Shown here one piece after another: positions 20,541-22,317 of a stretch of 64,000 nt of DNA (the first letter of the stretch is position 1; the number at the start of each line of letters is the position of its first letter). The position numbers and the translations under genes are program-made. The notes below the pieces were generated by a model. The model saw only the letters and a program-made list of their open reading frames with translations, did not search any database and was not told where the DNA came from. The stretch spans positions 59,854 to 123,853 of the forward strand of contig JACVCJ010000007.1 of the NCBI GenBank assembly GCA_016742095.1, written 5' to 3'. The DNA is from Bacteroidia bacterium (GTDB lineage: Bacteria; Bacteroidota; Bacteroidia; CAIKAF01).

Positions 20541-20553
20541 ATTGCCAAAAAAT

Positions 20554-20934
20554 TTAAACGGGAACTCTTCTGCTTTTCCTAGCTAACAGACCGGGGATAA
20601 CATCATCTTCAGGGGTCATTCCGACAATAACGGCATGTGCATCATTGGAATAATCTTCACTATATATAGGATCATGATGTGTACTTAAACCTTCTATTTC
20701 ACAAACCTCAGCATTACTTATTTCAAAAAGGAAGTACTTTTTAGCATCGACGATCGCAATTTCAGGCTTAGTTAATGACCTGACCTCTACAGACAATTCG
20801 CCGTTATCTTTTTCCCGTAACCGAAATACCCTCGATGTAGCGGTACCATCCGGATTCATATAATTATGTTCCGGTTTATTGTACCCTCGTCGGTACAGAT
20901 GTTCATCTTTTCCTACGGGTCGGCGCTCTTTCAT
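20554..20934 (-). CDS. hypothetical protein, third gene of the AT-rich cassette
   Basis: 126-aa ORF with ATG at 20932-20934, 7 nt downstream of the preceding ORF. AT-rich codon usage unlike the flanks. No family motif recognised. Confidence 0.6.
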   Translation of the reverse strand: MKERRPVGKDEHLYRRGYNKPEHNYMNPDGTATSRVFRLREKDNGELSVEVRSLTKPEIAIVDAKKYFLFEISNAEVCEIEGLSTHHDPIYSEDYSNDAHAVIVGMTPEDDVIPGLLARKSRRVPV

Positions 20935-20940
20935 TACAGA

Positions 20941-21426
20941 TTATTTCTTATTGAGCCATTGAAGTATTTCAGGCATTTTATCGTCGGCAAAAACTTCCTG
21001 ATAAGGCTGCTCTGTATCCGGAAAAAAAACCACGACTTCCCTGTTGGGATAAAAAATGATCTCAACCGATCTTTTCTTTGTTTTGTTTCTAATATCAAGC
21101 ATTATTTCACCGTCAGGACCGGGTGCTGCATGAAATATTGGATGCCCATGTCTTTCTAAAAGACTTGCCAGGAATCTTGCACGTTGAACAGCTGTAGGCG
21201 AAGGAGCCAGAGCCCCATCTTCGTCCCAGTTATTCTTCAATTCAGAATATGCATTCAGCAATTCTATTATTCTCGAATTCAAGGCATAAGGGTTCGAGAA
21301 ATCCGCTTTTACAACGATACCTGAACCGGACATATCCCGTTCAATATATGGTCTGTAATCACATACGGAAGGATTTAGCGCCGTAACAACCAAATGGGTA
21401 GTATAGTTATCGATCAAGGCTGGCAT
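20941..21426 (-). CDS. hypothetical protein, second gene of the AT-rich cassette
   Basis: 161-aa ORF with ATG at 21424-21426, overlapping the upstream gene by 20 nt. The C-terminal half contains NWDEDGALAPSPTAV...HAAPGPDGEIMLDI. No family assigned. Confidence 0.6.
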   Translation of the reverse strand: MPALIDNYTTHLVVTALNPSVCDYRPYIERDMSGSGIVVKADFSNPYALNSRIIELLNAYSELKNNWDEDGALAPSPTAVQRARFLASLLERHGHPIFHAAPGPDGEIMLDIRNKTKKRSVEIIFYPNREVVVFFPDTEQPYQEVFADDKMPEILQWLNKK

Positions 21427-22150
21427 AAAAATCAGGATTTAGTATTTCTTTAAATATATGTGAAGTTCTACTATGTGCATATTCAAGCCATTCTAAGATA
21501 TCCCGTTTTTTGAAATTCTGGGCTTTTTGAATCGTGGTGTTTAATATAACAGCCTCTTTTCCGGTCCTGTCATTTACACCGTTCGCTATATCAACCTGAA
21601 TTTCTGAATTATCTTCCAAAAGGAATCTTTGCGAAAGCCCCGTTCCAATTATAGTTCCAGGTAAGCTGTATTCGTTGTACATTTTTACCAGAAAGTTTTT
21701 GTTTATGAACTCCTGGAAATTTTCACCGTCTGCCATTTCCCAGGCATCCACATATTTTAGTTCTGCGCTTCTGAAACTCAGTGGTTCGTCGTACACTTCA
21801 CACAAAGAGTTGATTACCTTTATAACCGTAGGTTTATATGTTTTTTCCCATTCATACCCCTTTTCAATTTCATTTATTGTCAGAATCCCCGGCCCATGCT
21901 GCACAACCGGCCATTCAAACTCTCCGCTCCAGTACTGATGCAATGGCATCCCGAAAAACGTAGCTGACAGTCCTTCAGGTATTAATTTCTTTCGTAAGGG
22001 GAACTGAGCTTTAAGCTTTTGAGATAATACACCCTGCGCCAGTTCAAAACCGCTATCATACAGTACTCCGTTGGCATTACGCTCACCTTCCCAGCGAAGT
22101 TCAAATACCACTTCTTGCAATGGGGCTTTTTTCAACTTTGTGCTACTCAT
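21407..22150 (-). CDS. TIGR04255-like family protein, first gene of the AT-rich cassette
   Basis: 247 aa. The N-terminus KKAPLQEVVFELRWEG and C-terminus ILEWLEYAHSRTSHIFKEILNPDFY match my recollection of the sporadically distributed uncharacterised TIGR04255 family. Not verified by search. Confidence 0.6.
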   Translation of the reverse strand: MSSTKLKKAPLQEVVFELRWEGERNANGVLYDSGFELAQGVLSQKLKAQFPLRKKLIPEGLSATFFGMPLHQYWSGEFEWPVVQHGPGILTINEIEKGYEWEKTYKPTVIKVINSLCEVYDEPLSFRSAELKYVDAWEMADGENFQEFINKNFLVKMYNEYSLPGTIIGTGLSQRFLLEDNSEIQVDIANGVNDRTGKEAVILNTTIQKAQNFKKRDILEWLEYAHSRTSHIFKEILNPDFYASLDR

Positions 22151-22188
22151 ACGAAAGCGTTATACAATACGTAACGTAAATCAGGTCA

Positions 22189-22196
22189 CAAATGTA
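22189..22196 (-). promoter_or_regulatory. -7 box TACATTTG upstream of the AT-rich cassette
   Basis: On the minus strand, TACATTTG is a perfect TAnnTTTG match and lies 38 nt upstream of the ATG at 22150. No well-spaced -33 TTG is visible. Confidence 0.4.
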
Positions 22197-22253
22197 TCAA
22201 TTAATGTAAGCAATATACTACCAATTAAAGAAAGTCACAAATAAAGAAACGTT

Positions 22254-22281
22254 AAAGGGCATCTCCTATGAAATGCCCCTT
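22254..22281 (-). terminator. putative terminator hairpin after clpB
   Basis: On the minus strand: AAGGGGCAT / ATGCCCTTT hairpin with one bulge, followed by AACGTTTCTTTATTTG. This is a weak, interrupted U-tract. Confidence 0.5.
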
Positions 22282-22317
22282 GAAAATTTGTATGTTCTGA
22301 TTTACTTTTTCTACTGC

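Follow-up and report, generated by a model that had tools for sequence, protein, structure and literature searches.

What is a compact, conspicuously AT-rich set of three genes doing between two housekeeping genes of a Bacteroidota genome? The locus in question lies in a 64,000-nucleotide (nt) stretch of contig JACVCJ010000007.1 of Bacteroidia bacterium, which we refer to at its full length as the window, between a thrC-like gene (19488-20540, plus strand) and clpB (22318-24912, minus strand). An earlier note on this DNA had described three minus-strand open reading frames (ORFs) of 247, 161, and 126 amino acids (aa) at this place, and they are as described: gA (21407-22150), a member of the TIGR04255 family; gB (20941-21426); and gC (20554-20934), which is PDC-M32B-like. 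Judged by its sequences, the cassette is a three-gene, Bacteroidota-wide relative of PDC-M32, a candidate system in PADLOC, and is not categorically new. The note's proposal of an uncharacterized defense or toxin-immunity system is supported by gene context in other genomes, but the link to PDC-M32 means that the system is not wholly unclassified, and its defense or toxin function is putative.

The composition of the cassette is foreign to the genome around it. At 0.396, the GC content of the 1777-nt segment is the lowest of all intervals of that length in the 64 kb (z = -5.7; other intervals, mean 0.532, standard deviation 0.024, minimum 0.469), and GC at third codon positions (GC3) is 0.32-0.38 in the cassette genes versus 0.66-0.67 in the two flanking genes. 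The base counts from which the DNA had first been called AT-rich are exact (21 of 60 G+C at 20941-21000, 36 of 60 at 20401-20460). The end of gA and the start of gB overlap by 20 nt (21407-21426, minus strand), as had been reported, but the gap between gB and gC measures 6 nt, not 7. An overlap of 17-20 nt between gA and gB is present in every called homologous cassette, and its 20-nt form in the window suggests translational coupling. Like the earlier note, we found no integrase, transposase, tRNA, or obvious flanking repeat: the segment has no additional long ORF able to encode a mobility enzyme, only short chance direct or inverted repeats were detected at its flanks, and an Rfam scan gave no match. 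The cassette does not qualify as an integrative genomic island or a transposon.

Across the Bacteroidota, the three genes behave as a unit that moves. There are about 100 homologous cassettes with conserved genes, and wherever the organism is named, homologues of all three proteins occur only in Bacteroidota (Ferruginibacter, Hanamia, Cytophaga, Algoriphagus, and Bacteroidales metagenome-assembled genomes [MAGs]), with their sizes kept. Upstream of gC, sufficient DNA is available at 46 loci, and the order gA-gB-gC is compact and colinear in 45 of them; partners the size of gB and gC therefore do co-occur with this TIGR04255 subfamily. In the sole exception (L041, 536-2559), a transposase that we judged by eye to be of the IS5 type and a pectate-lyase-like gene lie between gB and gC. 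The flanking genes vary from locus to locus, and the GC content of the cassette (0.32-0.46, versus 0.30-0.55 in the flanks) is always under that of the flanks in GC-rich hosts. The cassette is a mobile three-gene operon at a variable site. Some copies have decayed: in L070-L072 gC is frameshifted while gA and gB are intact, and in L067 gA and gC are frameshifted. We considered whether the order of gene decay might reveal a toxin, but no consistent order emerged and the exercise was uninformative.

The close relatives of the window record the presence and absence of the cassette directly. A search with the thrC-like protein, covering one genome per species, returned one close relative, L006, a MAG labeled Flavobacteriales bacterium. 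It is the closest genome available, and it carries an empty site: clpB is the immediate neighbor of the thrC-like gene, the two stop codons are 45 nt apart, and there is no cassette but a different hairpin between them. Nucleotide homology (blastn) between the window and L006 runs to 20534 and is picked up again at 22315, where the clpB stop codon lies, so that 1780 nt without a counterpart in L006 (20535-22314) stand against 48 nt in L006. No target-site duplication is seen at the junctions in this comparison. The AT shift had been thought to end at the clpB terminator hairpin, but this minus-strand, terminator-like structure (22254-22281; 12-bp stem, T-rich tail), which starts 36 nt downstream of the clpB stop and is likely the clpB terminator, falls inside the segment absent from L006.

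The cassette occupies the same site in two relatives that are slightly more distant, one being the group L074/L075/L076/L026 and the other L059 (ClpB identity to the window of 97% in both, versus 99.4% in L006). All three related genomes with the cassette show its AT shift. The junctions are homologous among the window, L074, and L059, and the 168-nt spacer from clpB to gA is conserved with its hairpin and promoter motif; the insertion is common to these lineages and therefore predates their split. The cassette was thus not acquired recently by one lineage alone; its site is polymorphic for presence and absence, and L006 either lost the cassette or received an empty allele by recombination.

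The alleles at this site have diverged far more than their surroundings. Amino acid identities of gA, gB, and gC to the window are 79, 69, and 87% in L074 and 63, 54, and 63% in L059. Synonymous sites of the cassette are near saturation (proportion of synonymous differences, pS, 0.56-0.81), with synonymous divergence (dS) of the flanks at 0.5-0.9, and nonsynonymous divergence (dN) of the cassette is about 2-20 times that of the flanks. Conservation in the ~100 homologous cassettes, together with a dN/dS of 0.05-0.13 for the window-L074 pair, shows that these are real genes kept by purifying selection. Allele tree and flank tree agree in topology, and the cassette divergence data fit a faster clock and allele replacement alike. 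GC3 nonetheless stays at 0.31-0.50 across alleles despite the near-saturated synonymous sites, a persistence that would point to re-seeding from an AT-rich external pool or to selection for AT-richness.

The two downstream proteins, to which no relatives had been assigned before, match the models of the two PDC-M32 proteins. gC aligns with PDC-M32B (E 2.9e-5, residues 28-103 on profile positions 17-92 of 123), a weak but consistent match found in 94 of the 96 members of its family (best E 8.1e-9). gB aligns with PDC-M32A (E 1.8e-3, residues 45-131 on profile positions 254-336 of 375), as do 37 of 44 gB family members (best E 4e-6), and the gB family covers only positions ~254-366 of the profile, its C-terminal third, rather than most of the 375. 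PDC-M32 is a two-gene candidate, M32A of ~375 aa and then M32B of ~123 aa (Payne et al., bioRxiv 10.1101/2024.01.29.577857); it is defined as FAM_01821>>FAM_00608, and the supplementary cassette table lists 98 entries, taken here as RefSeq instances. In the literature searched, it is mentioned only as a PADLOC match in Sinorhizobium prophages. Strict membership in PDC-M32 fails because the M32A match is partial and the genes are three, and we would not expect PADLOC to call the window locus as PDC-M32. The length of gA, 247 aa, is about that of the unmatched N-terminal region of M32A, which suggests a split/fused relationship. A gB profile searched against 1.84 billion representative sequences gave 401 matches, and among the 150 listed, all of 224 aa or less, there is no fused gA-gB protein; longer gB forms add only variable, unrecognizable N-terminal stretches.

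Genomic context links one lineage of the cassette to a known defense system. PDC candidates were nominated by at least one instance embedded in a bacteriophage exclusion (BREX), DISARM, or type I restriction system, and in one study 4 of 8 randomly chosen PDC/HEC candidates protected E. coli. Such embedding is seen for the triad in L043, L037, L035, and L088, and not for the window's copy. L043 reads BrxC-PglX-gA-gB-gC-BrxH-PglZ, L037 and L035 hold parts of this arrangement, and L088 has it in full. In L088 the stop of gC (8001-8378) overlaps the start of brxH (8375-11176) by 4 nt, and in L043 gC (8387-8755) likewise overlaps the SNF2 helicase gene brxH (8755-11556); in these alleles the triad looks built into the operon and not merely inserted.

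Elsewhere, a Type ISP restriction-modification enzyme lies directly upstream of the cassette in L086 and another nearby in L002, while genes for an SNF2/PLD helicase, PemK, an MmeI-type methylase, and DUF87 adjoin it in L080. Neighboring toxin-antitoxin genes comprise Gp49/HTH in L004, PIN in L079, and PemK in L080. PADLOC run on 141 flanking ORFs from 23 loci gave matches including PglX, PglZ, AriA, pAgo, AbiLi, and ATPase-Toprim. The flanks of thrC-like genes in other genomes were considered as a control for defense-gene density and proved too redundant, so we give no enrichment statistic. A linkage to ClpB, considered since an ORF of ~860-870 aa precedes the cassette in several loci, was rejected: PADLOC scans of four such ORFs identified two as PglX and matched nothing in the other two, and ClpB adjacency is limited to the window's own clade.

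gC is the proposed effector of the cassette. It is the most conserved of the three proteins (60% mean column identity over 96 sequences), with R15, N27-P-D-G30, S34, R35, F37, S48, H100, and G105 invariant. Its AlphaFold2 model is confident (predicted local distance difference test [pLDDT] score, 94.7), and the top Foldseek matches in the PDB are the RNA 2'-phosphotransferases Tpt1/KptA (6ede, 9lda, 6e3a, 9ldc, and 9ldg; E 0.05-0.3, probability 0.66-0.92). With template modeling (TM) scores of 0.40-0.44, these are the sole PDB matches with a TM score above 0.4. In BFVD, an independent viral library, a putative RNA 2'-phosphotransferase of a phage ranks first (E 0.19). Candidate residues for a catalytic motif, such as the R-H-R-R tetrad of Tpt1 or an H-Y-E or R-S-E triad, are R15, R16, S34, R35, R40, S48, and H100. 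Searching the PDB with the gC family profile gave chance matches only. DUF7489, of which we found no mention in the literature searched, is a weak Pfam match in 13 of the 96 family members. We think it an even call whether gC is truly an enzyme of the ADP-ribosyltransferase (ART) fold.

gB, the fastest evolving of the three genes (dN 0.21), has nine conserved initial residues that are dual coded with the 3' end of gA, a hypervariable stretch at residues ~10-45, and a conserved C-terminal domain at ~50-160. It has no Pfam relative, and a PDB search with its family profile gave chance matches only.

gA is a full-length member of TIGR04255 ("sporadTIGR04255"), a curated NCBIfam model without a function, as the earlier note had proposed; its score of 73.9 bits exceeds the cutoff of 30 bits, and the alignment (E 1.7e-20) spans residues 5-245 and profile positions 1-251 of 252. 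The literature searched holds no mention of the family, Pfam offers nothing usable for gA, and PDB searches with the gA sequence and family profile returned only chance matches. Its AlphaFold2 model (pLDDT 93.3) has an order of secondary structures that fits two tandem β-α-β4-α repeats. The top PDB matches in Foldseek are chains of the TATA-binding protein (TBP), with E values of 2e-3 to 6e-3 and probabilities of 0.77-0.95 and with TM scores of only 0.24-0.38; helix-grip proteins rank lower. The model thus points weakly to a TBP-like fold. Residues E13, E17, Q72, Q84, N93, Y99, W101, Y120, and H226 are invariant, and the polar ones among them, E13, E17, Q72, Q84, and N93, sit on predicted β-strands of the first repeat. 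Searches with hidden Markov models and folds assigned none of the three proteins to a metabolic family. On the points examined that the earlier note had named as counting against it, namely, uniform synteny and native composition in relatives, partners that never co-occur, and membership in metabolic families, the evidence fell out in its favor.

From these findings we infer a role in defense, a division of labor among the three proteins, and a chemistry for gC. Tentatively, and with a little less than even confidence, we favor an anti-phage, abortive-infection, or toxin-antitoxin-like module in which gC is the effector. gC would have a minimal ADP-ribosyltransferase-type (Tpt1/KptA-like) fold with an invariant site rich in Arg, Ser, and His, and it could use NAD+ to modify the phosphate end of a nucleic acid or some other target, or it could consume NAD+. 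gB and gA would hold gC inactive, and one or both might also sense infection, with gB as an adaptor or neutralizer and gA as a sensor or partner subunit that may bind a ligand or nucleic acid on the face of its β-sheet. A more ambitious version, in which TIGR04255 proteins are widespread and hitherto overlooked sensors or scaffolds that head modular three-gene anti-phage cassettes with exchangeable downstream partners, gC is a new minimal ART effector acting on phosphate ends of nucleic acids, and PDC-M32A is a fusion of gA and gB, strikes us as unlikely.

Several observations weigh against this picture of a defense module with an ART-like effector. With respect to defense, several copies, the window's included, lie among housekeeping or metabolic genes with no defense gene nearby. 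The BREX-embedded copies belong to one old lineage (67-76% nucleotide identity over BREX and cassette) and therefore count as one event and not five, as a single old association that has been stably kept. PDC-M32 itself has never been put to experimental test, and neither gA nor any of its 43 relatives matches PDC-M32A at E values up to 0.1; gA gave no PADLOC match at all. The gB/gC subfamily was not found in phage or plasmid records (tblastn) or in three IMG/VR scans, and gA searches of phages, plasmids, and IMG/VR gave only distant TIGR04255 proteins with unrelated partners.

With respect to gC, the fold matches are weak (best E 0.05, TM score of at most 0.44), and none of the 96 family members matches a Pfam ART, RES, DarT, or PTS_2-RNA model at E values up to 10. 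At E71, which is nearly invariant, a few members have K or R instead, and a classical R-S-E catalytic triad is therefore doubtful. Finally, L034 has an intact gC with broken gA and gB. This arrangement, in which an assembly error is possible, does not sit easily with a toxin that kills unconditionally.

The same L034 allele bears on an alternative that we consider unlikely: a tripartite toxin-antitoxin or addiction module that persists by being selfish and by stabilizing the DNA that carries it, with no dedicated anti-phage role, in which gC is the toxin and gB and/or gA the antidote. A small, tightly coupled, compact, and co-oriented operon with overlapping genes is what such a module looks like, its sporadic, mobile distribution fits, and other toxin-antitoxin genes adjoin the cassette in L004, L079, and L080. 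Even the BREX embedding is compatible, since toxin-antitoxin modules are common in defense islands. Besides the intact gC of L034 without its presumed antidotes, what speaks against this alternative is that no DNA-binding antitoxin domain (helix-turn-helix [HTH], ribbon-helix-helix [RHH], or AbrB) is found among the Pfam matches of gA or gB and that one BREX lineage has kept the triad through deep divergence, with an overlap of gC and brxH, which suggests more than hitchhiking.

A second alternative keeps the defense module and its architecture and changes only the effector: gC would be a small nuclease or a nucleotide-binding or protein-binding effector of a new fold rather than an ART, and its resemblance to Tpt1/KptA would be superficial. 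The Foldseek E values short of significance, the TM scores below 0.5, the weak DUF7489 match in place of any Pfam ART match, and the lack of an invariant Glu or Gln (E71 being not invariant) would all be expected if this were so. Set against them are the Tpt1/KptA structures as the only PDB matches with a TM score above 0.4, the Tpt1-like phage protein that tops an independent viral library, and several invariant Arg residues and a His that suit a phosphate-directed enzyme. We regard this alternative, too, as improbable.

Quite improbable, in our view, is that the cassette is an accessory for nucleic acid repair or for countering toxins, in which a Tpt1-like gC removes or caps 2'- or 5'-phosphate ends and serves BREX where it is embedded. 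Tpt1/KptA are indeed RNA-repair enzymes, and in the BREX alleles gC overlaps brxH as if the two were cotranslated. Yet most cassettes lie far from BREX and from any RNA ligase or 2H phosphoesterase partner, gC is ~50 residues shorter than the matched two-lobed Tpt1 structures, and the fast turnover of alleles is more typical of conflict genes. An ordinary resident operon, with a low GC content due to low expression or local mutation bias, is nearly excluded: synteny with conserved junctions in three related lineages and the agreement of allele and flank trees are in keeping with it, but the cassette is missing from L006, stands in many unrelated contexts across Bacteroidota, holds its low GC3 at nearly saturated sites, and matches no metabolic family.

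The private promoter that the earlier note had attributed to the cassette is supported by its relatives. TAnnTTTG is the Bacteroidota -7 promoter consensus, and a match to it, TACATTTG (22189-22196, minus strand), the likely cassette promoter, begins 46 nt upstream of the gA start codon and is kept in L074 and L059. Of 34 nonredundant loci, 20 have the consensus in the 120 nt preceding gA, compared to 5% of random 120-nt intervals; by this enrichment, the cassette likely brings its own promoter. In 11 of the loci, the distance from the start of the motif to the gA ATG is exactly 12 nt (e.g., L001, L004, L030, L033, L035, and L043), and transcripts of many alleles, starting from a motif so placed, are probably nearly leaderless.

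The same stretch upstream of gA holds a repeated element. The 9-mer ATTTGTGAC occurs twice on the minus strand, 49 nt apart (22177-22193 and 22226-22242); one copy overlaps the TAnnTTTG motif, and both are largely kept in L074 and L059. Possible readings of the pair are an operator and a promoter element in duplicate. The hairpin at 22254-22281 is likewise conserved in L074 and L059. At the other end of the cassette, 13 nt (20541-20553) separate the stop of gC from the convergent stop of the thrC-like gene, and no hairpin lies between them. Transcription leaving the cassette on this side would yield RNA antisense to the 3' end of the thrC-like gene, a place where L006 has its hairpin.

The remainder of the window contains features of its own. 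The protein encoded by the thrC-like gene is a pyridoxal phosphate (PLP)-dependent, threonine-synthase-like enzyme (Pfam PALP, E 4e-70) for which the best threonine-synthase model gives 259 bits, under that model's cutoff of 301. A second indel lies at 10681-14580, where a 3.9-kb block of native GC content (~0.56) holds three minus-strand ORFs of 392, 383, and 461 aa that by eye resemble an ABC-2-type permease, an HlyD-like adaptor, and a TolC-like outer membrane protein. The block is missing from L006 and L074, in which a MarR-like gene directly abuts a BshC-like gene. Beyond clpB, at 25631-29767, the gene for a 1378-aa surface protein of the PKD/CHU_C type has internal nucleotide repeats ~500 nt apart with 78-83% identity, which surfaced as secondary blastn matches.

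If the triad is a working defense system, it provides the first functional context for TIGR04255, and as a three-gene, split relative of PDC-M32 it would help to separate the sensing part from the killing part. Should its chemistry be as we suppose, the NAD+-based defense repertoire would gain in gC a very small effector of Tpt1/KptA-like type. With an empty site, three alleles, and BREX copies, the locus is also useful for following cassette turnover by recombination with no visible mobility gene. None of this amounts to a change of paradigm, as hundreds of such candidates have already been catalogued.

How does the cassette compare to known systems? Structurally, the gC model has one coherent match, Tpt1/KptA, which is also its best in the PDB as well as in BFVD. 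The invariant residues of gC include several Arg and one His, as a phosphate-directed active site would be expected to have. The differences are considerable: the TM score is 0.40-0.44 with no similarity between sequence profiles, Tpt1 is a housekeeping or repair enzyme and is not part of a three-gene mobile cassette, and gC has 126 aa versus 176-180 aa in the matched structures. The missing part is presumably the RNA-binding N-lobe of Tpt1. DarT-DarG, RES-Xre/MbcT-MbcA, and ParT-ParS are ART-toxin pairs that serve as toxin-antitoxin and defense systems. The cassette resembles them in concept only, as a small effector of putative ART fold accompanied by a proposed neutralizer in a mobile operon; it has three components instead of two and no macrodomain, Xre/HTH, or DUF2384 partner, and none of these toxins is among the fold matches of gC.

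The family of gA is found at the head of other cassettes as well. TIGR04255 members outside the gA subfamily precede small partners unlike gB and gC: two IMG/VR contigs (L082, 674-2503, and L083, 5989-7740) encode TIGR04255 proteins (91-96 bits) followed by unrelated proteins of ~140 aa and then 175-207 aa, and at the P0207 locus a distant TIGR04255 protein with partners of 135 and 210 aa adjoins a NERD/UvrD helicase. These distant proteins score 91-108 bits, and the three examples hint that TIGR04255 heads modular cassettes with variable partners. One of the two IMG/VR genes lies beside an ORF that we read by eye as a terminase large subunit.

Among BREX-embedded genes, such as BrxU and the HEC and PDC candidates of Payne et al., one lineage of the triad has a comparable position, between pglX and brxH, whereas the window's copy lies between clpB and the gene for a PLP enzyme. 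PDC-M32 remains the closest known system. It has two genes where the cassette has three, the first gene of the cassette belongs to TIGR04255 and matches no PDC-M32 model, and the matches of the other two are weak (E 1e-3 to 1e-9). Nevertheless, gC is like M32B, the C-terminal domain of gB is like that of M32A, the small M32B-like gene comes last and in the same orientation, and both PDC-M32 and the cassette family are found embedded in BREX-type systems. The cassette probably works in the same way as PDC-M32.

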